DNA of 64,000 nucleotides from Gammaproteobacteria bacterium (GTDB taxonomy: Bacteria > Pseudomonadota > Gammaproteobacteria > Eutrophobiales > Eutrophobiaceae), in the NCBI GenBank assembly GCA_965116495.1, contig OZ220696.1:1536001-1600000 (forward strand), written 5' to 3'. The notes beneath the pieces are model-generated. The model was given only the letters and a program-made list of their open reading frames with translations. It was not told where the DNA came from and did not search any database. A program made the translations under genes and the position numbers. Below, piece by piece: positions 26,508-45,055 of the stretch (within the stretch, counting starts at the first letter, position 1; each line of letters opens with the position of its first letter).

Positions 26508-26776
26508 TATTGGACTCTCAGTTTACTGCGCACCCGAAAGCCAACCGCCAGAATCATCTCCAGCGAATAGTGGATAACCTGATATTTCTTTCCGTCAGCG
26601 GCAGTTGTAAAGTAATTCTTTACAACTGAATGTTCATCTAACTCCCTTTCATTCAGTATGTTAGCGACATGTTGCCCCTGGCTCATCCAGACCATGCCAT
26701 CCCGCGCATGGAGCTCGACACTGGCCTTGCCGTCTGCGGTGTTATAAATAATGATATTTTGCTGTTCCTGGTTCAT
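26507..26776 (-). pseudogene. Truncated RhuM-family protein
   Basis: IIIYNTADG..VWMSQ..TTAADGKKYQVIHYSLEMILAVGFRVRS, then stops at 89 aa; apparent internal deletion after MSQ. Confidence 0.75.
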
Positions 26777-28608
26777 TCCAGCACCTTCTTTTCCAGTTCC
26801 AGGCTGCTTTCTTCCAAGGCCAGGATATCGGCCTTGATCTCGGCCAGAGAGCGCAGAGGTTTGAACTCGTAAAAGTATTTGGTGAAGTTAATCTCATAGC
26901 CCGTTTTAGTCTTGCTCTCGTCAATCCAAGCATCGGGAAGATGTGGTTTGACCTCGTGCTGGAAATATTCATCGATGCTTTGCGGGATCAATTTACCGCC
27001 AGCATCTTCAGGGTCTTTTCGCAAAAACGGAATGTTCTCGTAGTCCCTCAGGCTGGTATCCGCTTTGGGTGAGCCGTCACGCCCGGTGACAATGGCGCCG
27101 TTTTCATCTTTTTGTGGTCGCTCAACCACCACGCGCCAGTAGCCAAAAAATTCATTCGGCAGGATCTTCACGAAATCGTTTTCTGCAAAATCGCCATAGA
27201 GTCTGGTGATAAAGCCGATCCCTTTAGCTTCGCCGTTTTCTGCTACCTGCTTGCGTTTGTTGCCCAGTGAACGCGGCATTCTCTCCCAGAAGCGGTTGAA
27301 ACTGCGTTCGCCGGATTGCATCAGTTCTTCATCCTTGTTGCCGGTGGCGTTGATCAGTTGTAACTTGCCTTTGCGCTCGGCGCTTTTGTGGTTGTTCAGT
27401 ATCCAGACGTAGGTGGAAATGCCGGTATTGTAGAACAGTTGATCCGGCAGGGCGATAATCGCTTCCAGCCAGTCGTTTTCGATAATCCACTGACGGATGT
27501 TGCTCTCGCCGCTGCCGGCCTGGCCGGTAAACAGGGGAGAACCGTTAAAGACAATCCCGATACGACTGCCGCCAGGTTCTTCCGGTTTCCGTGGCGGGGG
27601 TTTCGTTTTGCTGATCATGTGCTGCAAGAACAGTAACGAACCGTCATTAATGCGCGGCAACCCTGCGCCGAAACGTCCGGCATGGCCTTGGTTGTCGTGT
27701 TCGTCGGCAATGATTTTTTTTGCTTTTTTCCAGTCCACGCCAAAGGGTGGATTGGACAGCATGTAATCAAACCGTTCATCCCGCAGACCATCTATCGTAA
27801 ATGTATTGCCGAACTTGATATTGGCGGGGTTTTGCCCCTTGATCAGCATGTCGGATTTGCAGATGGCGTAGGACTCCGGGTTGATCTCCTGGCCGAACAC
27901 CTCCAGCCTGGCGTCAGGGTTGAACTCCTTGAGGCGCTGTTCGCCGATGGAGAGCATGCCGCCGGTGCCGCAGGCAGGATCGTAGAGTGTTTTGACGATA
28001 CCGGCCTGGGTCAGTGATTGGCTGTCCGCGTTGAACAGCACGTTCACCATCAGTTTGATCACCTCTCTGGGGGTGAAATGCTCCCCGGCCGTCTCGTTGG
28101 ATTGTTCCGCAAAGCGCCGGATCAAGTCTTCAAACACATAGCCCATTTGCATGGAATCCATCCCGGCCAGATCAATCCCGGCAAACCTCTTTACCACCTG
28201 AAACAGGATATCCGCCTTGGGATCATCCATGCGTTCAATCTGGTCATCAAAGTTGAAATACTCAATAATCTCCCGGGCCGAAGCCGAATAGCCATTGATA
28301 TGGTTGCGCAGGTTGGCCGCCACGTGGTTGGGGTCAGCCACGATTTTTGCAAAATCAAACGGGCTGCGGTTATGGAAATTGACCCCGGCAATTTTGTTCA
28401 AGGTGAGGTCTTTGGCGCTGTCGGAGAATTTTTCCACCCGGGGCAAATAATCAAGGACTTTTTGTTTGGTGGGCGCCAGCACGCAATCCAGACGGCGTAA
28501 CACCGTCATCGGCAGGATAACCTTGCCATAATCAGACTGCTTGTAATCACCGCGCAACAGGTCAGCCACATCCCAGATAAGGTTGGCTTTATCCTTGAAA
28601 TCTGTCAT
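26773..28608 (-). CDS. hsdM: Type I restriction-modification N6-adenine methyltransferase
   Basis: GEHFTPREV, YDPACGTGGML, NPPF. Confidence 0.95.
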   Translation of the reverse strand: MTDFKDKANLIWDVADLLRGDYKQSDYGKVILPMTVLRRLDCVLAPTKQKVLDYLPRVEKFSDSAKDLTLNKIAGVNFHNRSPFDFAKIVADPNHVAANLRNHINGYSASAREIIEYFNFDDQIERMDDPKADILFQVVKRFAGIDLAGMDSMQMGYVFEDLIRRFAEQSNETAGEHFTPREVIKLMVNVLFNADSQSLTQAGIVKTLYDPACGTGGMLSIGEQRLKEFNPDARLEVFGQEINPESYAICKSDMLIKGQNPANIKFGNTFTIDGLRDERFDYMLSNPPFGVDWKKAKKIIADEHDNQGHAGRFGAGLPRINDGSLLFLQHMISKTKPPPRKPEEPGGSRIGIVFNGSPLFTGQAGSGESNIRQWIIENDWLEAIIALPDQLFYNTGISTYVWILNNHKSAERKGKLQLINATGNKDEELMQSGERSFNRFWERMPRSLGNKRKQVAENGEAKGIGFITRLYGDFAENDFVKILPNEFFGYWRVVVERPQKDENGAIVTGRDGSPKADTSLRDYENIPFLRKDPEDAGGKLIPQSIDEYFQHEVKPHLPDAWIDESKTKTGYEINFTKYFYEFKPLRSLAEIKADILALEESSLELEKKVLE

Positions 28609-28817
28609 TTACGCTCCGGTTTGAAATTGTTTTGCGCGTGGGACCCTTCATGATTATACATCTCCCGCCAATGTTCAATCCTGGCGCAACAGCCCGTGAG
28701 ATGACTCTGTCAAACCCTACGAGGGGATGGTCCCGTTGTTATGGATGAGTCCTTACCAATAAGGGTGAGTATTTGATTTCCAGTTTCTGGTCAATTTTCT
28801 GGTAATGGATATGCGGT

Positions 28818-29147
28818 TCAGTACGCAAATAATTCCTGGAGGCGCCTGCACGACTCCTTCCGGGTGGTCTCATCAATAACACCCAGTTTTTTTACTAACC
28901 GTGATTTATCAACCGCCCTGATTTGATCAAGGAGGATCATCCCTTCCTTCCCTTGAAATTCACACCTTACGCGACAGGGCAAATGAAAACTCTTTGTTGT
29001 CATCGGAGCTACCAGCACAGTAGATAAGGCTGCCATTTCATCGGGTGAAATCACGATACATGGCCTTGTTTTGCTGATTTCCCTGCCCTTGGTCGGATTA
29101 AGCTTGACGAGCCAGACTTCGAAGCGGGCAACTTCCGGGATTACCAT
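28818..29147 (-). CDS. PemK/MazF family toxin
   Basis: VKLNPTKGREISKTRPCIVISPD..LDQIRAVDKSRL. Confidence 0.92.
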   Translation of the reverse strand: MVIPEVARFEVWLVKLNPTKGREISKTRPCIVISPDEMAALSTVLVAPMTTKSFHLPCRVRCEFQGKEGMILLDQIRAVDKSRLVKKLGVIDETTRKESCRRLQELFAY

Positions 29148-29413
29148 TCCAATTCTTCATCGGATGTTAATGTTGCATCCAGCCATTCATTATCTATTGC
29201 CTCAACACCGTGTACAGCTATTGCCGCCTCAATGGATTCTTTCCAGCCTTCCCTTGCCCTCTTGTTTGGAGTAACCAGGAGGCCATTGCTGACTACCTGT
29301 AATTTAAGCTCTCTTCCTTCCAACTGAGCCTGTTCTACGAGTGGTTTCGGAATTCTGATGCCCTGCGAATTACCAATTTTGACCAAGTGAGCCATGATCG
29401 TGACCTTGTACAT
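29141..29413 (-). CDS. AbrB/MazE family antitoxin
   Basis: LVKIGNSQGIRIPK; overlaps the toxin start; alternative ATG at 29395. Confidence 0.9.
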   Translation of the reverse strand: MYKVTIMAHLVKIGNSQGIRIPKPLVEQAQLEGRELKLQVVSNGLLVTPNKRAREGWKESIEAAIAVHGVEAIDNEWLDATLTSDEELEW

Positions 29414-32073: not shown

Positions 32074-33246
32074 CTATCCTTTTAAAATTCGCTCGCCTAA
32101 CCGTTTCGCCCACCATTGGTTAAACTCCCAGACGCAACGTTCGTAGGGGACGGACAACCTGCCCTGCTCATAAAACGGGCTGCGAATACCTGCCTGGCAA
32201 CGTGCAAAAGCGGGCATGTCGTCACTCTCGTGAACGGTCCGCACCCATTGAACACGGTCCCGGATCGCCTGTTCTAGCGCCGGGTCTTCAACCGTGCTGC
32301 GCGACACCAGGTCATTCAACCAGAGATCGTGACTCTCTGCTGATGTCGGCATTAAGCGGTAATATGCAACCATGTCGGCGCCAATCCCCAGCAGCAGGTT
32401 AGGCCAGACGAACACCACCATGGGTTCCAGCCGGTCGGCTTCGCTGAGAGTTTCAATAAACGGCAGGTCCATGCCACCGTCAATATTGGTTGCCGACGGG
32501 GCCTGTGCCTGACCAAAGCTGAGGACCGAATAGCTGCCCGTGCTTGCTATGGGGTAAGAGTTGGCGGCCGGATAGGTGGGCTGAAACGTTTTTACATGGG
32601 CGCCGAGATGATGGTAGGCCTCAACAAATGATTCCGCATTGATTTTCCAGTTCTGGCGTTGATCATAATAAAAGGCGTCATGTGCCGGAACCAGGTCGGC
32701 CATTCGCCAATTTGCCAATAGCTTTTGTAAATCCGTCAACTGGGCATGCAGCGGTTCTGCATCGCCGCTGATATTGACGAATATAAACCCTTCCCAGATC
32801 TCGGTGCGCATTTGCCTCAGGCGGCAGTTCCTCCGATCAAAGTTTTTGACCTTATCCATCAACGGCGCCGCTTTCAGCCGGCCGTCGAGTTCATAGGTCC
32901 AGGCATGGAACGGGCATATGAACAGTCTTGCATTACCACTGCCTTCGGCAACCAGGGTGCCCTTGTGCTGGCAGACCCGGGACATGAGGTGAATGTCATC
33001 ATTTTGATCGCGTGTCAGCACCAGGGGGTAGTCGAATACATCCATACACAGATAATCACCGGGATTCGGGACCTGGCTGACGTGGGCCACGTTGACCCAG
33101 TGTGTCAGGAATAATTGTTCCGCTTCCTGTTCGAAAATATGCTCTGACACGTAGGCGGCCCGGGGCAGGTTACAGGCCTCATCCAGGGGCAGTCTGACTT
33201 TGGCAAGTTGCTCCGGTGTCACGAACTGGTTATGCGTCAGGGTCAT
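32074..33246 (-). CDS. Rieske non-heme iron oxygenase alpha subunit
   Basis: CQHKG..CPFHAW; ESFVEAYHHLGAH. Confidence 0.9.
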   Translation of the reverse strand: MTLTHNQFVTPEQLAKVRLPLDEACNLPRAAYVSEHIFEQEAEQLFLTHWVNVAHVSQVPNPGDYLCMDVFDYPLVLTRDQNDDIHLMSRVCQHKGTLVAEGSGNARLFICPFHAWTYELDGRLKAAPLMDKVKNFDRRNCRLRQMRTEIWEGFIFVNISGDAEPLHAQLTDLQKLLANWRMADLVPAHDAFYYDQRQNWKINAESFVEAYHHLGAHVKTFQPTYPAANSYPIASTGSYSVLSFGQAQAPSATNIDGGMDLPFIETLSEADRLEPMVVFVWPNLLLGIGADMVAYYRLMPTSAESHDLWLNDLVSRSTVEDPALEQAIRDRVQWVRTVHESDDMPAFARCQAGIRSPFYEQGRLSVPYERCVWEFNQWWAKRLGERILKG

Positions 33247-33258
33247 GTAGTGTTCCTC
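33226..33258. repeat. 33-bp direct repeat, copy 1 (covers the Rieske RBS and start)
   Basis: CTGGTTATGCGTCAGGGTCATGTAGTGTTCCTC. Confidence 0.95.
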
Positions 33259-33336
33259 TCTAATCTACCCCATCAATAAACCTTTTGACTGTACGTTAAG
33301 TTGTTTAGAAATGAAAGAGGTTACACTTACTTCAGA

Positions 33337-33361
33337 CATGACTGATTAGTCATGATATAAT
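33337..33361 (+). promoter_or_regulatory. Operator palindrome plus extended -10 of the cassette promoter
   Basis: CATGACT-GATT-AGTCATG directly followed by TGaTATAAT. Confidence 0.65.
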
Positions 33362-33392
33362 AGCCATTTGAACAGCTGCTCAGATTGCGTAA

Positions 33393-33830
33393 ATGGATAT
33401 TCCAGCATTACAGGAGAATGGCGAGTTGCCTCCGGGTGAACATCCAGCCACTGTAGATGATGTCGAAACGGTATTCGGTTCCACTACAGGTCGTAGAAGA
33501 TTATTGATGCGGGGATTACGCGCTGCAATTGCTAATTTTGAGTTGTCCAGTGTAAAGACGCTTTGGCTCAATGGCAGTTTTACTACGGACAAGAATGAAC
33601 CGAACGATATAGATGGTTGTTGGGAATACACGCCGAATGTTGATATTAAAAGACTTGACCCTGTTTTTTTAGGGTCAAGAAAAGCAATGAAAGAAAAATA
33701 TGGACTGGATTTCTTTATATCAAACATTGCCGAAGCGGAAAGCGGCCTTCCGTTTCCTGAGTTTTTCCAGGTTAATCGAGAAGGTGAACCGAAGGGCATT
33801 ATTGTTATCAGGTTAGGAGATTCAGAATGA
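33393..33830 (+). CDS. DUF6932-like Pol-beta-fold nucleotidyltransferase, putative toxin
   Basis: NGELPPGEH; LNGSFTTDKNEPNDID (GS..DxD); C-terminal PKGII. Confidence 0.75.
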   Translation: MDIPALQENGELPPGEHPATVDDVETVFGSTTGRRRLLMRGLRAAIANFELSSVKTLWLNGSFTTDKNEPNDIDGCWEYTPNVDIKRLDPVFLGSRKAMKEKYGLDFFISNIAEAESGLPFPEFFQVNREGEPKGIIVIRLGDSE

Positions 33831-34237
33831 TTACCAGCGATAAACAGTATGAGGCTGCAAAAAAACAACTGGCCATGCTTATAGAATCCCTTTCTTCTCC
33901 TGTAAAGAAAGGCGTTCCCAATGAGATAGAACAGGCAGGTCGAGCGCAGACGCAGGAATTAATTGATGAAATTCAAGAATCTGTTAACGAGTATCATGCG
34001 CTCAGAAACAGCAGACCTTCAGACGTGGAAATTCATTCAGTGGAAGATTTGATGGTTGCGCCAATTCGCTACCGAATAGCAGCCCACATGAGTATTGATG
34101 AATTTGGCCGCAAAGTGGGTATCAGCCCAAGACAGATTGCGCGCTATGAGAACGAAGGCTATCAAAACATTAATTCCAGCACCTTCCGGAAAATATTAAA
34201 GGGCTTGAATATTCTTCTTCATGGGAAAGTAGCGTAA
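33827..34237 (+). CDS. XRE-family HTH protein, putative antitoxin
   Basis: MITSDKQYE N-terminus; MSIDEFGRKVGISPRQIARYE HTH; ATGA overlap with the upstream gene. Confidence 0.8.
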   Translation: MITSDKQYEAAKKQLAMLIESLSSPVKKGVPNEIEQAGRAQTQELIDEIQESVNEYHALRNSRPSDVEIHSVEDLMVAPIRYRIAAHMSIDEFGRKVGISPRQIARYENEGYQNINSSTFRKILKGLNILLHGKVA

Positions 34238-34249
34238 CTGGCGTCCATT

Positions 34250-34282
34250 CTGGTTATGCGTCAGGGTCATGTACTGTTCCTC
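34250..34282. repeat. 33-bp direct repeat, copy 2 (covers the MFS stop and an abortive Rieske start)
   Basis: CTGGTTATGCGTCAGGGTCATGTACTGTTCCTC, 32/33 identical to copy 1. Confidence 0.95.
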
Positions 34283-35412
34283 GCGGCAGCTTTCCACATG
34301 ATTATCAATCCGATGGGTAATGAGAGCAAACCTGTCCAGAGTACCGGACCGTAACCCGCATCACCCAGTGCGTACGTTACCAGCGCCGGCCCTGAGGCCA
34401 GTGATGACGGGAACACCACTGCAAGTCCTACCAGTAAGCGGCCGTTTGAATCAATATCGGCGATGATCGCTGACAGGTACGGCAGGCAGAAGTACCAGGC
34501 CGCGTTAAACAGGCATGCTGCGATGATATAGTGATTAACGGATTGCATGCCCCACAGGAAACTGATACCGGTTGCCGAACAAATCATGCTGGCGACAACG
34601 GGGAGGCGGCGACCCCACCTGTCCCCAAGCCAGGTGGCCAGGGCCGCGCCGAAGATTGCCAGCACTATGGAGGCCGACAGGATACTTCCCACGCTGCCGG
34701 GTTCAATGCCCGCAGCCATACCGATACGCTCGAAATAAGCCCATACTGCCGCCTGCCCGCCATAATAAATGAATATGCCAAGCAGACCTGTGAGGCCGAG
34801 GAACAGTCTGTTATGTTTGTCCGGCGTGGCGCCGGCATCTCTGCCATGTTCCGGGAAGCTTTTAGCCAGGGGTAATACGAGTAGCGCAAGAACGGTTACG
34901 GTAAGAAAAGGCGCGGCAAGACCATATGCTGATATCTGAGCGGGCAATAAATACAGTCCGGCAGCGCCGACTATTAACTGCGTCACCGCCCAGAAGCCGT
35001 AGTTACGGTCAAAATTCGTGGTCAGACCGATGGAAACTATGGTGACATTCATTAACAGACCGGCGCCGAGTCCCGCCAGGAACCTGAATCCAGCCAGTTC
35101 AGCATAACCGTGCAGGTACGTCGAGGTGATATTGCCCAACACGGCGATGAACACCCCGGCAAGCAGGATATGACGCCAGTTAACACGGGTGATGATGGCG
35201 AACACAAGCGCCGAACTGAGCGCATAGCCCGTCATTTCAAGGGAAAATAGATAACCGGCCTGCGTCTCCGTCATCCCTTCGATGTCAACATATGCGCCGA
35301 TAATGATTGGCCCGAACAATAATACCGCAATGCCTACCGCTGAGGTATAGGCATAGGCGAATATCGATAGCGGCCTGTCGGGATAGAATGAAGAAACTGA
35401 TTTGTCTGGCAT
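34267..35412 (-). CDS. MFS transporter
   Basis: About 12 TM segments, WLGDRWGRR; same subfamily as 34..1185; ATG at 35412 preferred. Confidence 0.88.
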   Translation of the reverse strand: MPDKSVSSFYPDRPLSIFAYAYTSAVGIAVLLFGPIIIGAYVDIEGMTETQAGYLFSLEMTGYALSSALVFAIITRVNWRHILLAGVFIAVLGNITSTYLHGYAELAGFRFLAGLGAGLLMNVTIVSIGLTTNFDRNYGFWAVTQLIVGAAGLYLLPAQISAYGLAAPFLTVTVLALLVLPLAKSFPEHGRDAGATPDKHNRLFLGLTGLLGIFIYYGGQAAVWAYFERIGMAAGIEPGSVGSILSASIVLAIFGAALATWLGDRWGRRLPVVASMICSATGISFLWGMQSVNHYIIAACLFNAAWYFCLPYLSAIIADIDSNGRLLVGLAVVFPSSLASGPALVTYALGDAGYGPVLWTGLLSLPIGLIIMWKAAARNST

Positions 35413-35431
35413 TGGACTTAAGGTTCCCACT

Positions 35432-36235
35432 CTAACCTGAGCAATAACTGATAACGTCCCATTCGTGTCCGCTGTTATCTGCAATTACGACTGCATCATC
35501 ATCCGAGTCCAGTAACCATCCGAGGGCCAGGGTTTGACCTTCTCTCCAGGGCAGGCTCGACAGCACGATTTCGTATTCATCACTGTGTTCGCATTTCGCG
35601 TAGGAGAATTCCGTGTCAAGATAAGTGTAAACACTGTCACGGTCAGCAATATTTTCAGCAACTATTTCCTGCAACGGCCGTTCCTGGCCAATCACTACTG
35701 AACGATCAACGGCCAGCACGGCATGCGCGCCTGCAACATAGAGGTTCGTTGTTGTTTCGCTGTCCCGGCACAGCAGGTGTATGGCGAATTCCCGGGAGTT
35801 GTCCAGTAATCGCCAGTCTTCCACATAGGCGCCGCTGGGTGCATATTCCATCATACTGACACCCTCCTCTTTCCATTCAAACCAGCCATCTTCCGGAAAG
35901 TTGATGACAGGCTGTAGCATGAAACCGGATTCCCCACTCTCCCATGTTGCTGTCGGATAGGGCGTCGCGGTTTTATCCACAACAGTTATACCGCAGGCAC
36001 AATCCTGTTCAGCCAATGCAATCAATTCATCATCACTGCATTCGGATATTTGCCGGCGTTCGGAAAAGTCAGGCCGTTCGGCACTGATACGCATATCGGC
36101 CAGACCGGAGGGAGTCTGTAGCCAGATGACACGGGTGCCGGTATCCTCGGTACCGTCTTCAAACCGGATATAACGCCTGCGCCAGCAACCGAGCATGTGA
36201 TCAGGAACGGTCTGATTACCGATAAGCAAGGGCAT
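35432..36235 (-). CDS. Hypothetical protein, HRI1-like beta-barrel
   Basis: GCWRRRYI..DTGTRVIWLQT..ADMRI..YVEDWR; family call tentative. Confidence 0.6.
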   Translation of the reverse strand: MPLLIGNQTVPDHMLGCWRRRYIRFEDGTEDTGTRVIWLQTPSGLADMRISAERPDFSERRQISECSDDELIALAEQDCACGITVVDKTATPYPTATWESGESGFMLQPVINFPEDGWFEWKEEGVSMMEYAPSGAYVEDWRLLDNSREFAIHLLCRDSETTTNLYVAGAHAVLAVDRSVVIGQERPLQEIVAENIADRDSVYTYLDTEFSYAKCEHSDEYEIVLSSLPWREGQTLALGWLLDSDDDAVVIADNSGHEWDVISYCSG

Positions 36236-36771: not shown

Positions 36772-38565
36772 TCACAATTTTTTGCGCGCTTCCCGGATTT
36801 CCTCGAGATCCAAATCACTCGACCCCCAGAAATCCAGAAAGCGGCGGTACCAGTCCCGGGCCCGGTCCTGGTCGCCCTGCTGTTCATGCAGTTGTCCCAG
36901 TTGATAGTGGGCCTTTACATAATGAACGGGAATGTCCAGCCTGGGGTCGGTAAGGCCGACCAGTCTTTCCAGTTCTGCGATAGCACCCTCCAGGTCTCCT
37001 GCCTGCCACTTTGCCCGGGCCATGCTCTCACGGTATAGAGGATGGTCGTATATCTTCAAGGTAGCCTGGAAGTTTATGGCCGCATCTTCCGGCCGTTTGC
37101 GTTGCAGGAGAATTTCGCCGTTCAGGTGATAGAAGCGGCGAATATGGGAGCGGAATTCGGGGTCGCTCACAGAATCGCCGATCACCCGCAGACGCTGGGC
37201 GGCATCGAGCAGCCGCCCTTTCTTGACCAGGGCAAGGCCGACCAGGTGCTCGATATCAAGATTTATATCACTCGGGTCCCGCGCCAGTTCCAGCGCCTGC
37301 TGATAGTTCTCGATCGCTTCATCGACCCGGCCGGTCTCCGCCTGGAAATAAGCGATGTAGAACAGCTTGAGCCCTTCACCCGCGGGATCGTTACGCAGAC
37401 CCCGAAGACGTTTGGCTTCCAGCTTATGTTCCGCGGCCTCGGCAAACCTGCCCTGGTATGCAGAAATCAGCGCCAGTTCGTCGTGAATTTTCTCCCGCGT
37501 CTCATTGCCGGTTGTTTCAGCAAGCAACGCTTCAAGGCTTCCCCTGGCCGCATCAATCCTGTCCTCGAGCGTGTCGATCCTGGCCAGTTCCAGGACTATC
37601 ATGGGGTCGCCGGGTAGTGCCTGCAGTTTCTCCTGCAACAGTTGCCGGGCCGTGTCGAAGTCTCCGCTCCGGCGCGCTGAGACAGCATCGGCCAGATCGC
37701 CTTCGGGCTCAGGTAGACCGCCGTAAGGCAGGTCGCCCGGGAGTTCCGGCGTCCATCCCTCCCGCCGCGCCGTGACAAAGGTGGAAAGCAGCGTTGCCCG
37801 GCTGTCCAGGTATTCCTTACCCGCTTCAACAGTCGCGCCGCGTGGGTCGCCCAGGACGCCTATCGGCGAGATGCTATGGGTGCCGTCGCGGTTGAGCTTA
37901 TCACCCATCGCCAGGGAATCGCCCATAAAACCCTGTTCGGCGCTCTCCAGGTCAACCAGTTCCGGTTGGCAGGCCAGCATAAACGCCGTTTCCGACAGGC
38001 CGGCGTGAGTGCCTGCCGTTGCCGGGTCGATGCCCAGGCGCTCCGAAATAACGGCTGCCGACCCAAGGTAGGCATCGGCATCGGAATAGGAAAAAATATT
38101 CACATGCGGATAGAGTACGCGCAATTCTTCCTCCAGCTCCCCGGCCATGGGAAAGTTGGTGCCGTGGGTCGGGATAATGGCGATGTGGCGGAACCCATGC
38201 CAGGCGAGGCTGTGGACGTATTCGTAGACCAGGGATTTGAGTATCTGTTTCCGAACGGTGATCGTCCCGGGGAAGCGCATATGATGGGGAGCAATACCGA
38301 CCCGGATGTTGGGCGTTATAAGGGCCTGCCCTACCCGTTCCGCAACCTCGCGCGCCAGGCAGTCGCCGGAGGCCGAGTCGGCCGCCAGGGCCATTTGCGG
38401 TCCGTGCTGTTCAGTCGACCCGATTGTAATAATTGCGGTATCAATTCCTTGCTCGAGGGCTGCCTCGATTTCCCTCCACGTCTTCTTTTCCAGTTCGTAT
38501 TGGGCCGGCGCCGGCGGCGCCAGAAACAACGTAAAAACCACTGCCGCGGTTATTTTATGGATCAT
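36772..38565 (-). CDS. Exported creatininase-family protein fused to TPR repeats
   Basis: Signal peptide; GSTEQHGP..D, HHMRFPGT, HGTN, HAGLSET; TPR helices in the C-terminal half. Confidence 0.85.
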   Translation of the reverse strand: MIHKITAAVVFTLFLAPPAPAQYELEKKTWREIEAALEQGIDTAIITIGSTEQHGPQMALAADSASGDCLAREVAERVGQALITPNIRVGIAPHHMRFPGTITVRKQILKSLVYEYVHSLAWHGFRHIAIIPTHGTNFPMAGELEEELRVLYPHVNIFSYSDADAYLGSAAVISERLGIDPATAGTHAGLSETAFMLACQPELVDLESAEQGFMGDSLAMGDKLNRDGTHSISPIGVLGDPRGATVEAGKEYLDSRATLLSTFVTARREGWTPELPGDLPYGGLPEPEGDLADAVSARRSGDFDTARQLLQEKLQALPGDPMIVLELARIDTLEDRIDAARGSLEALLAETTGNETREKIHDELALISAYQGRFAEAAEHKLEAKRLRGLRNDPAGEGLKLFYIAYFQAETGRVDEAIENYQQALELARDPSDINLDIEHLVGLALVKKGRLLDAAQRLRVIGDSVSDPEFRSHIRRFYHLNGEILLQRKRPEDAAINFQATLKIYDHPLYRESMARAKWQAGDLEGAIAELERLVGLTDPRLDIPVHYVKAHYQLGQLHEQQGDQDRARDWYRRFLDFWGSSDLDLEEIREARKKL

Positions 38566-39643: not shown

Positions 39644-42600
39644 TCAGAACAGGAAGTCGGTTGCGTCCAGGTTGGCCATGTCGAACCCGACCAGCAGGAT
39701 CGTGCCGCCGCCGTGGCTTGACAGGTCTATAGTTATTCCACCGGGAACGGATGCTCCACCAGGATAGTAGGACAGGTCCAGAGCCTCAAACCCAGGCAGG
39801 TTGAAGGCGCTGAGGTCTATTTTGTCCTTGTTATCGATGAAGGAATGGATGCCGTCGTCTCCATGGCCTGCGTCGAAGACAAAGACATCGGGGTTTCCTG
39901 CACCGTCTGCCTCACTCGACCACGAGGGCGCCCCTCCGTATAACTCATCATCTCCGGCGCCACCGTTCAAGCGGTCTGCGCCGGCGCCGCCCATCAGAAA
40001 ATCATCGCCGGCGCCCCCATTGAGCTCATCGTCACCATCGTGACCCAGCATGCGGTCGTCACCTTCATCCCCATGGAGGTAGTCGTTTCCACCATCTCCC
40101 AGGAGCAAATCACCACCGTCATTGCCGTAAATCTCATCATCGCCGGCGCCCCCCGCTAGAGTATTAGCGTTTCCATCTCCATACAAAACATCCGCAAATT
40201 CAGAACCGGATACTCCCTCAATACCGGTGAGAACATCACCCTCGGCATAACCGTCTTTGGCGATACCTTCCAGCAGGTTCACCATTACACCTGTATCCGA
40301 ATTCCAATAATCGGTTGTATCAATGCCATCGCCTCCATCCAGTTTATCAGCGCCAGCGCCACCGGCCAGCCAGTCATCACCACCATTGCCCCGGATATCA
40401 TCATTCCCGCCCAAGCCTTGAAAACCATTATTCTTGTGATTACCAATCAGTACATCGCCGTAATCAGTGCCATCAACAATTTCAACATTCCTGATAATAT
40501 CCCCCTCTGCGTGACCACCCTTGCCGGTGCCTTCCAGGAGGTTGACCGTCACGGCTGCGTCTGATTCCCAATAGCCTACCCAGTCGCCGGCGCCGGCGCC
40601 GCCCTGTAACCGGTTGGCGCCTGCATCACCTCTCAAATTATCATCGAAGCCAGACCCGGTTACGTTCTCAATACTGGTAAGGACATCACCCTCCGCAGCA
40701 CCCCCTCCAGTATTTCCATACTTCAGATCGACAAACACGCCTGCATCAGAGTCCTCATAAAGCGCCGAGTCAACACCACTGCCACCGTCCAGCCGGTCTG
40801 CGCCGGCGCCGCCCTGCAATACATCATCACCACCATTGCCGTACAACTCATCCGCACCATCCAGCCCATACAACACATTGCCAACCCCATCACCCCGTAA
40901 TACGTCGTCGTAACCCGATCCCGCCAGGTTTTCAATCGCAGTAAGCACGTCTCCCTCGGCATCCCCACCCCCCACCGTACCCGTTGCAAGGTTTATTCTT
41001 ACCCCTGCACTCGAGCCCAAGTAAGAGGCCCAATCAATACCCCTGCCCCCATCCAGCCGGTCAGCGCCCGCATTGCCGTATAACCAGTCATCACCGTCGC
41101 CGCCGTGTAACGCATCATCACCGTCATCCCCATGCAAGCTGTCAGCACCCGCACCACCGAACAGTTTATCCCGGTCCGCGCCCCCGTGCAGTTCATCATC
41201 GCCCCCATCACCATACAGGACATCCACACCGGCCTCACCAAAGAGTTGGTCATGGCCAGCGCCCCCCTGCAACTCATCATTGCCCTCATTGCCGCGCAGC
41301 TCGTCAGCGCCCGTGTTACCAAGAAGATAGTCCGCACCCGCACCACCGTGTAACACATCATCACCCCCGGCGCCCTCCAGACGATTTGCGCCGGCATCAC
41401 CCGTCAGGCTGTCCCGGTAGGCAGAGCCTGTTACGTTCTCCATACCCGTAAACGTATCTCCCTCGGCATAACCGCCTGCCGCCGTGCCCGCGGCCAGGTC
41501 CACCCGTACTCCTGCCACGGATAAGCGGTAGGACAAAGTGTCCGCGCCTGCTCCTCCATCCAGGCGGTCGGCGCCGGCGCCCCCTGCCAGTACGTCATCA
41601 CCACCGTTGCCACGCAGTTCATCAGCGCCCCCGTTACCGGCCAGCTCATTGGCGCTGTCATCACCTGTCAGCACATCCGGGAGGGCAGACCCAGCGATAT
41701 TCTCAATCCCGCTGATGACGTCACCCTCAGCATGACCACCGGCGACCGTATTGTTGTAGAGGTCAACCGTCACGCCCGTGTCCGAACGTAGGTAGACCAC
41801 CCAGTCCACCCCGCCCCCACCATCCAGCCGATCAGCGCCCGGCCCGCCTTCCAATGCATCGTTGTCGGCGCCACCCCGAAGCTCGTCATTACCCCCGACC
41901 CCGTGTAATTCATTGGGACCGTTGTCACCCGTCAACACGTCCCGATAATCAGACCCCGCGATATTCTCTATACTCGTCAGCGTATCGCCCTGGGCATGAC
42001 CACCGGCAACCGTGCTGTCAGCAAGGTTTACTGTTACACCCGCATCCGATGTCAAATAAACCGCCCAATCCAGACCGATTCCCCCATCCAACCTATCCGC
42101 GCCTGCGCCGCCTGCCAATCTATCATCTCCCCCGCTGCCCCGAAGTTCATCGTCACCCCCAAGGCCGTACAACTCATTGGCGCCCGCGTCACCCATCAAA
42201 ACATCCCGGTACTCAGAGCCCATCACATGCTCAATACCGGTGAATACATCACCTTGTGCATAGCCGCCCGTTAATGTCCCCTCCCCAAGGTTGACCGTGA
42301 CCCCCGTAGCCGACAACTCGTAGGACAACCCGTCCAGGCCGGCGCCCCCGTCCAATTGATCGACGCCACTGCTGCCCAACAGCCAGTCATCGCCATCCCC
42401 TCCCGCCAGAATATCCTCACCACCCGCACCCCAAAGCCGATCATCCCCTCCCCCGCCGTCCAACCTGTTGGTATTGCCATCACCCCACAACACGTCAGCA
42501 AAGCCCGACCCGCTCAGGTTTTCTATATTCTCAATCATGTCACCCTGCGCATCACCGCCCGCCGCCGTGCCTGCCGCCAGGTCTACCGTTACTCCCTCAT

Positions 42601-45055
42601 TCGAGCCTTGATAAGAGGCCCAGTCCAACCCCGCACCGCCATCCAACCTGTCGGCGCCGGCGCCGCCTTCCAGTCGGTTGGCAGCATCATCGCCCACCAG
42701 CACGTCATCGTGAGCAGAACCAAGGATGTTCTCAATCTCGGTCAATATGTCTCCCTCGGCATGACCGCCCTGCACAATGCCTTCTGCAAGATTGATTGTC
42801 ACCGCCGCATCCGAATCACGATACGCCGCCCAGTCCATCCCCGCATCCCCGTCCAGACGGTCCGCGCCGGCGCCCCCTTCCAGAATGTCATCACCGCCAC
42901 TGCCCCAAATCTGGTCATTGCCATCACGCCCGTTCAGGTCGTTGGCAATCGCATTGCCGACAATCACATCATCTCCCGACCCGGCCACAAGATTCTCGAT
43001 CCAGGTATCCCGTGCGATGCTCATATTGCCAATCAGGCCGTATACATCGGAGATACCTTCCGGACGCAGGTAGATGCGCTGCTCTTGGGTGTCTGTGCGT
43101 AAATCCAGTGTGTCGCTACCGCCGTTGTCGTAAATCGTGAAGGTGGTTGGGATCGTAAGGCTTTGGGGTGAAAACTCCGGGTTCTCGGGTGTGCCCACGC
43201 TTTCAAAATAGTGAATGATGCCATCTTGATTCCCAACAATGAGATCAGGATGACTATCAGCGTTCAGGTCGGCAAATTCAAGCCCTATCCAATAGCCCGC
43301 AACAGTCGCATGAAAAGGATTCTCGAAGCCTGCGCGCTGGACGAAAACCGGTTCGGTCGTTGTGCCGGTATTCTCATGATAGAGAATGTCACCATTGCTG
43401 CTTCCCACAACGAGGTCAAAATCACGGTCATTGTCAGTATCAATAAATGCAGGTGTGTTATGAAACCCTCCGCTGATATTATTGAGAGGACTGGATGCAC
43501 CGCTACGTAATACAAAATCAGGGTTGGTCGCCGTGCCGGTGTTCTCATAGTAAGGAATATCGCCCCCCTCAGTGCCAACCGCGAGGTCAAGATCACCATC
43601 GCCGTCCAGGTCGGCCAATGTAAGCGTAGACCATGCACTGATCGTAATGCCATTAAACGGATTGGCTGTGTCAGTGCGTTGTGTAAAATGGGGGACGGCC
43701 ACAGTACCGGTATTCTCGAAGTAAGCGATAGCGCCGTAGTCATATCCAATGATGAGGTCATGGTCACCATCGCCGTCAAGGTCAGTGAAGGTCGGGGCGC
43801 TGTAAGACAGCACCGAAATGCCCTCCAAAGGGTTGTTTACGCCGGTGCGTTCGGTAAAATCAGGGTTGGCAGGCGTGCCGATGTTCTCATAGTAATACAG
43901 CAAGCCGGTGTCATTACCAACCACCAAATCCGGGTCACCGTCACCGTCAAGGTCGGTCAATGCCGGTTTAACCGTCGGTGTGCCGGAGTCACTCGGTGCT
44001 TGTATATCAGAAAAGGGATTGGCCTCCCCGGTCCATAATCTGAAGTATTCACCCAGGTAACCGTCCACATTTGATTGATAACCGTAAATGGTATCGCCTG
44101 TGTTGATCGTGTCAGGCGCGCCATAGAGATCCTGGATGGCGATGATGTCTGCAATCATCGGGGTCACGAACTTGGCAAAGCTGGCATTGATATATGTATT
44201 CTCTCCTTGGGAAAAATAAGACATCACCGTGGCCTGATAGGAATCTTTGAGGAATACGTTGTCGCGGCCGTATACACTGAGAAGATCGTATGGACCGGCA
44301 TGACCCAGACCCAAGGCGTGACCGATCTCGTGAATATAGGTCACGAAAGCGTTGCTGACCACACCTGTGCCATATGCAAACAACCAACCTGATGGCACGT
44401 TGACCAGGGACACAATATCCCCGTTAATGAACCGGCTGATGCCGAGAGAGCTTTCCCCTTCATCATCAAAGATGATACGGGCAGTATCATCTTCGACGAA
44501 CCTGAAAGTAATACCGGTCACGTTAGTCCAAGACTCAAGCGCCCAGCGCACGACTTGCTGTCCCTCTTCGGTGAGGGCGGTAATATTGACACTCAGCATG
44601 CCGCCAGGCTCCAGATCATGAGCAAACCTTGATCCCTTTTGCCATTCTTCCTGGAAACCATCCGTCAGAAACTCGGCAATCTCGTCATAACTGCCCTCCG
44701 GGATCGTGTTCTCGGCCAGCGCAAGCTCGTAGCTACCCGTGAAAGTATCATCGTAACTGCCTATGCACAGATAATAAGTCCCGCTGACGTCGGGGCTGAA
44801 AATGAGCCTTGCGCCGGCAGGAATCAAGACGCCGGAGGCCACCTGGTTGCCGGAGGCATCAAACAGCCCCAATACAGCCCAATCAACACCGCCGAGAGTA
44901 ACATCGTATATCGTCTCCGCGCTCAGTTCGACTTTGATCCAGTCTTTGTCACCCACCGAATCGAGCGTTCCCTGGAACATGTCTCCAAGAGATAGGGTAT
45001 ATTGCGTTTGCGCATTCGCGCCGGCATCACCCTTGTCTTCTTTGATAACAGCCAT
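39644..45055 (-). CDS. Giant secreted protein A: PPC-like domain + M10 metalloprotease + FG-GAP repeats + RTX repeats
   Basis: HEIGHALGLGH, Met-turn TVMSY, DLDGDGDxDL repeats, many GGxGxDxL nonapeptides, C-terminal DFLF. Confidence 0.92.
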   Translation of the reverse strand: MAVIKEDKGDAGANAQTQYTLSLGDMFQGTLDSVGDKDWIKVELSAETIYDVTLGGVDWAVLGLFDASGNQVASGVLIPAGARLIFSPDVSGTYYLCIGSYDDTFTGSYELALAENTIPEGSYDEIAEFLTDGFQEEWQKGSRFAHDLEPGGMLSVNITALTEEGQQVVRWALESWTNVTGITFRFVEDDTARIIFDDEGESSLGISRFINGDIVSLVNVPSGWLFAYGTGVVSNAFVTYIHEIGHALGLGHAGPYDLLSVYGRDNVFLKDSYQATVMSYFSQGENTYINASFAKFVTPMIADIIAIQDLYGAPDTINTGDTIYGYQSNVDGYLGEYFRLWTGEANPFSDIQAPSDSGTPTVKPALTDLDGDGDPDLVVGNDTGLLYYYENIGTPANPDFTERTGVNNPLEGISVLSYSAPTFTDLDGDGDHDLIIGYDYGAIAYFENTGTVAVPHFTQRTDTANPFNGITISAWSTLTLADLDGDGDLDLAVGTEGGDIPYYENTGTATNPDFVLRSGASSPLNNISGGFHNTPAFIDTDNDRDFDLVVGSSNGDILYHENTGTTTEPVFVQRAGFENPFHATVAGYWIGLEFADLNADSHPDLIVGNQDGIIHYFESVGTPENPEFSPQSLTIPTTFTIYDNGGSDTLDLRTDTQEQRIYLRPEGISDVYGLIGNMSIARDTWIENLVAGSGDDVIVGNAIANDLNGRDGNDQIWGSGGDDILEGGAGADRLDGDAGMDWAAYRDSDAAVTINLAEGIVQGGHAEGDILTEIENILGSAHDDVLVGDDAANRLEGGAGADRLDGGAGLDWASYQGSNEGVTVDLAAGTAAGGDAQGDMIENIENLSGSGFADVLWGDGNTNRLDGGGGDDRLWGAGGEDILAGGDGDDWLLGSSGVDQLDGGAGLDGLSYELSATGVTVNLGEGTLTGGYAQGDVFTGIEHVMGSEYRDVLMGDAGANELYGLGGDDELRGSGGDDRLAGGAGADRLDGGIGLDWAVYLTSDAGVTVNLADSTVAGGHAQGDTLTSIENIAGSDYRDVLTGDNGPNELHGVGGNDELRGGADNDALEGGPGADRLDGGGGVDWVVYLRSDTGVTVDLYNNTVAGGHAEGDVISGIENIAGSALPDVLTGDDSANELAGNGGADELRGNGGDDVLAGGAGADRLDGGAGADTLSYRLSVAGVRVDLAAGTAAGGYAEGDTFTGMENVTGSAYRDSLTGDAGANRLEGAGGDDVLHGGAGADYLLGNTGADELRGNEGNDELQGGAGHDQLFGEAGVDVLYGDGGDDELHGGADRDKLFGGAGADSLHGDDGDDALHGGDGDDWLYGNAGADRLDGGRGIDWASYLGSSAGVRINLATGTVGGGDAEGDVLTAIENLAGSGYDDVLRGDGVGNVLYGLDGADELYGNGGDDVLQGGAGADRLDGGSGVDSALYEDSDAGVFVDLKYGNTGGGAAEGDVLTSIENVTGSGFDDNLRGDAGANRLQGGAGAGDWVGYWESDAAVTVNLLEGTGKGGHAEGDIIRNVEIVDGTDYGDVLIGNHKNNGFQGLGGNDDIRGNGGDDWLAGGAGADKLDGGDGIDTTDYWNSDTGVMVNLLEGIAKDGYAEGDVLTGIEGVSGSEFADVLYGDGNANTLAGGAGDDEIYGNDGGDLLLGDGGNDYLHGDEGDDRMLGHDGDDELNGGAGDDFLMGGAGADRLNGGAGDDELYGGAPSWSSEADGAGNPDVFVFDAGHGDDGIHSFIDNKDKIDLSAFNLPGFEALDLSYYPGGASVPGGITIDLSSHGGGTILLVGFDMANLDATDFLF

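Follow-up and report, generated by a model that had tools for sequence, protein, structure and literature searches.

How does a small gene pair that carries no mobility gene enter a chromosome, and what marks does its entry leave? The question is raised by a 991-bp cassette in a 64,000-nt stretch of DNA from a gammaproteobacterium of the Eutrophobiaceae (hereafter the window; assembly GCA_965116495.1, contig OZ220696.1, positions 1,536,001 to 1,600,000). The cassette encodes a DUF6932 protein and a helix-turn-helix (HTH) protein, and lies between two 33-bp direct repeats at the junction of genes for a major facilitator superfamily (MFS) transporter and a Rieske oxygenase. For toxin-antitoxin (TA) and defence islets that lack a mobility gene, the route into the chromosome has long been an open question. 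We found that the insertion at this junction is real, and that the locus is a well-supported example of a known but unexplained class of insertion, with cargo other than restriction-modification (RM) genes and with informative daughter copies.

The insert and its repeats at the MFS/Rieske junction

32074..33246, minus strand, Rieske ring-hydroxylating oxygenase alpha subunit, 390 aa, intact; length as in relatives, and ratio of nonsynonymous to synonymous substitution rates (dN/dS) 0.11-0.16 against relatives
33226..33258, direct repeat copy 1, giving the ribosome-binding site and first 7 codons of the Rieske gene; private C>G at 33250
33259..34249, insert of 991 bp, 42.1% G+C (GC), missing in 10/10 congeners that possess this junction
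34250..34282, direct repeat copy 2, giving the MFS gene its final codons and stop
34267..35484, minus strand, MFS transporter, 405 aa, intact (open reading frame (ORF) and family search)

The two repeat copies are identical at 32 of 33 positions and spaced 1024 nt apart. The repeat sequence occurs at these two places only in the complete 4.34-Mb genome when up to 9 mismatches are allowed, and the chance expectation for such a pair within the window is about 3e-9. The insert is poorer in GC than the flanking genes (54.7% and 54.2%) and holds two ORFs, both on the plus strand and overlapping by ATGA. On the minus strand, the repeat covers the last codons of the MFS gene and the first seven codons of the Rieske gene; copy 1 retains GAGGA and the ATG of the Rieske gene, copy 2 retains the MFS stop, and both ORFs are full-length. 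A family search of the insert returned DUF6932 and HTH families only, with no match to an integrase or transposase family, and no terminal inverted repeat (IR) was found at its ends. The first-pass annotation had described an AT-richer two-gene segment with 32/33 direct repeats at these coordinates, lacking transposase, integrase and terminal IR and leaving both host genes unbroken, and these results agree with it. It had also raised the possibility of an assembly artefact, which is ruled out by Logan contigs that cross both repeats with zero differences in runs X1 and X3, possibly the source sample.

We searched 40 other genomes, including 22 congeners, for the empty site. The MFS/Rieske junction was present in 10 of the 22 congeners, and all 10 had a single copy of the repeat without the insert. 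The ATGA stop/start overlap was kept in 7 of the 8 empty sites that were translated, bearing out the proposal that the cassette had entered an ATGA-coupled junction still seen empty in relatives. At position 33250 all 10 empty sites carry C, where copy 1 has G. The only difference between the two copies is thus a base of copy 1 that no relative carries; the change, which occurs in none of the ten congeners, came after the duplication, and the two copies go back to the resident allele. Two sponge-metagenome runs contained 0.20-0.26 of the words, which is a hint only.

Repeat scars with unrelated cargo across the genome

A comparison of the genome with itself identified 91 two-copy repeats that are unique and isolated; the counts below refer to the 57 with a spacing of at least 300 nt. 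At 0.3-6 kb spacing we found 18 direct and 0 inverted pairs, compared with 18 direct and 19 inverted at more than 500 kb. One of the 18 direct pairs at short spacing is probably an intragenic repeat. For eleven of the 18, a stop codon is no more than 20 nt away, where 3.1 would be expected (0/2000 simulations), and the inserts of the 18 have a mean GC of 0.495 against 0.547 (0/2000 simulations). Their repeats are 30-135 nt long and share no common sequence. The cargo of the other inserts is unrelated (GcvT, AAA_14/DUF4143 and VapBC among it) and consists of TA pairs, ATPases or metabolic genes. A family scan of 214 of the 270 called ORFs, covering 23 loci, gave no match to an integrase family.

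Clean empty sites were found at the 3' end of guaB (39/39 repeat; G001 and G019), at the end of a metallo-beta-lactamase-fold gene (58/59; G015, read out in full, and G002, G020, G018, G014 and G008, with overlapping matches) and at a porin terminator (30/30; G015, G014 and G019). At a further pair (L045), the repeat was single copy in G018 with an inexact junction. These results show that the long target duplication is a habit of the host and not of the cassette. The annotation had proposed an unusual mechanism, but it is neither new nor special to the cassette: the same scar occurs genome-wide with unrelated cargo, and it matches the 'insertion with long target duplication' as outlined in the parts of the earlier report used here (PMC2853133). 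At the guaB 3' end (L033, L122, L123, L129 and L130), we also observed repeated independent insertions with differing cargo and duplications of 24-39 nt.

The repeats as a property of the gene pair itself were considered and rejected. In a scan of 27 homologous DUF6932/HTH loci, about half of which have short flanks, most showed nothing above background, and the long flanking duplications that the annotation had proposed to look for in homologous cassettes were mostly missing. At one locus (L075) a 40/41 repeat begins right at the edge of the contig and belongs to a long hairpin, and two near-identical loci (L072 and L074) share a weak 23/27 repeat.

Relation to known insertion classes

The 'insertion with long target duplication' is said to go back to Nobusato et al. 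2000 (Gene 259:99), which appears under that term as a reference-list entry. According to the sections of Furuta, Abe and Kobayashi (2010) consulted here, the class is known while its mechanism is unexplained, most of the cases compiled there are in naturally competent species, and release and re-invasion are stated to lack support from experiments (PMC2853133). On the same partial reading of the source, the class was described for RM genes 25 years ago and stands without a demonstrated mechanism (PMC2853133). The cassette resembles the class, as far as those sections define it, in having an insert below 20 kb that is poor in GC and free of mobility genes, a duplication above 30 bp whose sequence is unique in the genome, a repeat over a gene end and a single copy of the repeat in relatives. 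It differs in that its cargo is a nucleotidyltransferase (NTase)/HTH pair in place of RM genes, so that the R plus M pair, one of the search criteria of Furuta et al., is absent; no RM family matched the insert in family, PADLOC and NCBIfam profile searches. It further differs in that the repeat spans a stop/start overlap and rebuilds two genes, and in that daughter copies retain scraps of the old target, a feature relevant to release and re-invasion.

Integrase-driven islands, like cis-mobilisable elements, sit at tRNA or gene 3' ends, and their direct repeats restore the target gene. The cassette shares such target-restoring repeats, and tandem accretion is seen at tRNA-Leu in G008 and G016; it differs in having no integrase and no fixed att core or arm, and in repeats that vary by site. 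From insertion sequences, miniature inverted-repeat transposable elements and RAYT-REP (repetitive extragenic palindromic) elements it differs in lacking terminal IRs, in left ends that are not conserved and in a motif that is not significantly enriched at junctions. Many scars are available in the genus, along with both filled and empty alleles from congeners that occur in the same samples, and one cassette can be traced over at least 4 sites by its scraps, so that models of linear capture, circles and integrases can be compared within it.

Daughter copies carry scraps of the old target

Close copies or remnants of the cassette were found in G008, G004, G005, G016, G018 (twice), contig L053 and run X6. 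The right end is visible in four close copies, three of which run on into the old target, with scraps of 24 nt in G008, 19 nt in X6 and 78 nt in G018 (L021); the last consists of the whole 33-bp repeat and 45 nt of the MFS gene. In the fourth copy (L018, likewise from G018) the right end is ambiguous. The allele that the G008 scrap matches is that of G000 and not that of G008 itself. In G008 the cassette lies at the 3' end of tRNA-Leu(GAG) between 42-nt repeats. This repeat takes in bases from the start of the previous cassette, a start also present in G014 and G015, and 4 nt at the joint (TACA) are common to scrap and target. The distal repeat copy lacks the conserved arm that precedes the att-type tRNA fragments of the genus. 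What is new here is thus a set of related copies bearing 19, 24 and 78 nt of the old target, together with one fresh 42-nt duplication.

A precise excised circle cannot hold the 45 nt that the G018 copy carries past the repeat, and unrelated repeats at different sites are not what an integrase would give. The simplest reading of these sequences is that ragged linear fragments were captured, with a new duplication made at each site. We infer that capture of linear DNA by host repair is favoured over clean circle excision or an integrase.

Proposed mechanism and alternative explanations

We give about an even chance to the proposal that the foreign 991-bp cassette was inserted by host DNA repair acting on incoming linear DNA, without a recombinase of its own. 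Co-occurring congeners would be the source of this DNA, taken up probably by natural transformation. On breaking or stalling, a chromosome end would switch onto the incoming DNA at a few bases of microhomology, about 1 kb would be copied from it, and the end would return to the chromosome some 30-100 nt behind its exit point, so that this stretch is duplicated. Selection would then retain those events that leave gene ends whole. The template switch is the step that we infer from the form of the scars. ComEC, DprA and ComM are intact in the genome, and Ku was not found in it. Whether the whole genus shares a transformation-linked capture of this kind, in which host repair without a recombinase would copy arbitrary fragments of 1-4 kb into gene ends, duplicate 30-100 bp there and, at each hop, leave on the cassette a scrap of its previous landing site, is a more tentative matter, and we hold it to be possible but somewhat doubtful. 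If true, the scraps would make cassette itineraries readable and provide comparative evidence on the step of release and re-invasion.

Several points weigh against this explanation. The mechanism is read from scars and not from an observed event; microhomology can be scored at one joint only (4 nt); and ComEC, DprA and ComM are also present in most control genomes, so that they are no proof of competence. The repeat scan covers this genome alone, and whether 18 pairs per 4.3 Mb exceeds the bacterial norm lies outside its scope. Empty-site tests cover 5 of the 18 pairs (4 clean, including this cassette, and 1 inexact). On a looser list, L039 has no empty site and the same insert occurs in three congeners, and the repeat of L047 is a multi-copy element, also without an empty site. 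A literature search on homology-facilitated illegitimate recombination with duplication and microhomology found nothing relevant. In favour of the explanation, a 4.8-kb region of alcohol dehydrogenase, P450 and short-chain dehydrogenase genes at L039 (G000:C1:1231800-1238600) is 99% identical in G010, G022 and G005; such identity in three other species of the genus indicates very recent DNA exchange.

Recombination between the repeats, which the annotation expected to excise the cassette cleanly, would give a 1024-bp circle that re-enters through the 33-bp homology or by illegitimate joining, a Campbell-type cycle corresponding to the 'virus-like cycle' of Kobayashi. A Rieske-start scrap on 3 of the 4 close copies with a visible right end is in line with this, as are repeats that stay near-identical while daughter copies differ by 7-15%. 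The G018 scrap is also more diverged past 34269 (14/58) than before it (9/96; Fisher p 0.019), a step that looks like recombination with another allele. The same G018 copy, however, reaches into the MFS gene beyond the repeat, the left ends of the daughters hold no remainder of the repeat, and the first insertion and the de novo duplication in G008 are left unexplained. A joined form does occur in four runs; in X1 and X3, where it was checked, it is a contig with 27 differences in 295 nt, and therefore comes from a co-occurring relative and is not an excision product. No joined form of the same strain was found in the contigs of the 4 runs, which drop rare variants and cannot show rare circles. 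With the joined form belonging to a diverged relative and the daughters ending raggedly, clean excision finds no support, and we regard the circle as unlikely. Quite unlikely, in our view, is an origin in staggered nuclease cuts or a double-strand break at the target, where fill-in after joining would produce the long duplication, as has been proposed for RM insertions. Double-strand breakage is suggested as the common cause in the portion of Furuta et al. available to us (PMC2853133), a type I methyltransferase gene lies 4.6 kb away, and variable repeat lengths are compatible with resection; yet the insert encodes no nuclease, Ku was not found, and the model differs from host-repair capture mainly in the origin of the break, which sequence alone cannot separate.

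An integrase acting in trans on a minimal att-bearing element, of the cis-mobilisable or islet type and with the repeats as attL and attR, could draw on 9 tyrosine-recombinase matches in the genome; in the genus, tRNA-Leu(GAG) does bear att-like scars that have a conserved arm, and guaB and tRNA ends have been struck repeatedly. We nevertheless think this very unlikely, since the same cassette sits at unrelated targets between unrelated 33- and 42-nt repeats, the G008 copy lacks the conserved arm, the target is an accessory operon found in 10/22 congeners, and repeats of 30-135 nt share no sequence. Least likely of all would be a Y1/HUH (RAYT-like) transposase that uses GGGGTCAG-type ends in moving single-stranded cassettes. 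Of 3 Y1_Tnp matches in the genome one is an intact gene, TCTGACCCC is present in 153 copies, a motif at one edit lies by the left edge, and the X6 copy continues into GGGTC|GGACC. The annotation had read a degenerate GGGGTCAGA site there; the actual letters are GGGGTAGA, one base short, and a one-edit match to GGGGTCAGA is expected in about 1% of random 40-nt windows. The motif occurs near 2 of the 18 repeat pairs against 0.44 expected (p 0.07), and a wider motif near 4 against 2.2 (p 0.15). Close copies do not conserve it, and in three of them the left end gave no significant alignment to the left-edge motif (shuffle p 0.20, 0.95 and 0.37); the RAYT motif was rejected as the cassette end because junction enrichment is not significant and left ends are not conserved. 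Long duplications are not a known product of HUH transposition. At L084 (G000:C1:402140-405463), an intact Y1/RAYT-like transposase gene lies between GGGGTCAG-type ends.

The DUF6932/Xre-HTH gene pair

33333..33361, plus strand, predicted extended sigma-70 promoter CAGACA-17-TG-TATAAT (consensus match alone)
33337..33354, palindromic putative operator CATGACT-N4-AGTCATG between -35 and -10; single exact copy in the genome
33393..33830, plus strand, DUF6932 protein, 145 aa, predicted Pol-beta-superfamily NTase (GS..DxD), putative toxin; PF22014, E 7e-35
33827..34237, plus strand, 136-aa protein with an N-terminal helical region and a C-terminal Xre HTH, putative autorepressor/antitoxin; PF01381, E 1e-9

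The cargo is a widespread, conserved gene pair. The motif consensus of Pol-beta NTases is hG[GS]x9-13Dh[DE]h, and the DUF6932 protein fits it with G61 S62, D72 and D74, which are invariant across 80 aligned of 120 listed homologues. Its structure was predicted with a mean confidence (pLDDT) of 92.8, and the top matches of the model are minimal NTases and other Pol-beta-fold enzymes, though weak (Z 5.3 and 5.1; the best with a root-mean-square deviation of 4.5 over 93 aligned residues). Both genes are under purifying selection (dN/dS of the pair 0.09-0.16, DUF6932 0.16). The HTH gene lies downstream of DUF6932 at 20 of 26 metagenome loci, and a similar palindrome lies upstream at 19 of 26 homologous loci, where shuffled sequences would give 0.075, some loci in both counts being near-duplicates. 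With its overlapping ORFs, the pair therefore shows the layout of type II/IV TA systems. The promoter scan of the insert gave 2 sites against 1.8 in shuffles, which by itself is not significant. In the G008 copy, the NTase has lost its catalytic motif through an in-frame deletion while the HTH is whole, a pattern that a toxic NTase would predict; the opposite case, a broken HTH with a whole NTase, was not seen among six remnants.

A TA role of the pair is plausible. On balance we lean slightly towards a model with DUF6932 as an NTase toxin that is neutralised by the HTH protein, which would also bind the palindrome and so repress the shared promoter; this would make the cassette addictive. The description of the pair as uncharacterised and TA-like agrees with a conserved two-gene operon with an operator, and our literature search found no paper that names DUF6932.

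Other results run counter to the toxin assignment. A Foldseek search with the DUF6932 model gave no match at E<=0.001 (best E 0.068), and its best Z is the 5.3 given above. The NTase acts as antitoxin in MNT-HEPN, the best-matching solved systems. For PD-lambda-2, the portion of that report seen here (PMC9519451) has the Xre-peptidase as the toxic component, and in one E. coli strain no defence phenotype resulted from deletion of PDC-M63AB, according to the part of the preprint available to us (10.1101/2024.12.20.629700).

Among known systems, the first gene matches both Pfam DUF6932 and PADLOC PDC-M63A (E 1e-15), but the partner has no match to PDC-M63B at E<=1 among PADLOC profiles. The cassette shares a two-gene layout, putatively autoregulated here, with MNT-HEPN, AbiE, MenAT and PD-lambda-2, and its modelled Pol-beta-superfamily fold may be that of MNT, with a weak match. 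It differs from these systems in having no HEPN partner, no DUF1814/AbiEii or AbiEi match and an NTase-first order with an Xre HTH. The partner is 28% identical to the N-terminus of Xre-IrrE proteins that match PD-lambda-2B, and appears related to the Xre part of PD-lambda-2B as that system is presented in the excerpt consulted (PMC9519451), but it lacks the peptidase domain. Distant DUF6932 genes in congeners (L027:1453-3205, L029:1453-3202 and L031:1477-2954) are paired with an Xre-peptidase of 424 aa, which matches PD-lambda-2B, or with a 333-aa protein of no known family. Searches with the cargo gave nothing at E<0.7 among PDB sequences, no match in a phage collection and 28 distant matches on plasmids, each below 60% identity; NCBIfam holds no family for DUF6932, and the atlas search returned DUF6932 clusters only.

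Effect of the insert on the host operon

33654..33679, minus strand, terminator-like hairpin on the operon strand, inside the DUF6932 gene (z -4.4, window chosen around the hairpin)
34196..34270, minus strand, abortive 24-codon ORF from the orphan ATG of copy 2

The insertion removed the translational coupling of the MFS and Rieske genes, placed a 24-codon ORF after the MFS stop and brought in a predicted antisense promoter facing the operon. The abortive ORF expected from copy 2 does exist, but with 24 codons and not 7. The term 'non-disruptive' suits the reading frames, which are whole, but not the lost coupling or the terminator-like hairpin on the operon strand within the insert. A polar effect on the Rieske gene is possible. 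In an informal comparison the dN/dS of the Rieske gene is only slightly above that of relatives, and relaxed selection on it was set aside. A recombination breakpoint at the cassette, with the Rieske and MFS genes coming from different lineages, was hinted at by synonymous divergence (dS) and was rejected, as trees and informative sites gave it no support.

Neighbouring and other loci

A family of att-like scars consists of an AT-rich conserved arm ending in GTTACATnAnAGT joined to the 3' end of the tRNA-Leu T-loop (tRNA-Leu(GAG) loci L016, L020, L169, L180 and L182-L205; G000:C1:993333). These scars form tandem arrays at the tRNA; in many congeners they also occur away from tRNA genes, frequently next to small TA cassettes, and they are probably integrase-mobilised minimal cassettes. 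In G020, L138 and L139 are long tandem arrays of Rhs-like units of about 3 kb (labelled by eye), each after an element of about 130 nt ending in GGGGTCGGACC. A CRISPR-like array with a 36-nt repeat and a 66-nt period lies at G000:C1:3370-4000. Within the window, the following loci on the minus strand were observed.

26773-29413, minus strand, type I methyltransferase HsdM adjoining a MazEF pair, in a lower-GC patch
36772-38565, minus strand, 597-aa fusion of a creatinine amidohydrolase domain and TPR repeats
39644-45055, minus strand, protein of 1803 aa containing an HExxH stretch like that of metalloproteases, plus numerous glycine-rich repeats, as read from its sequence

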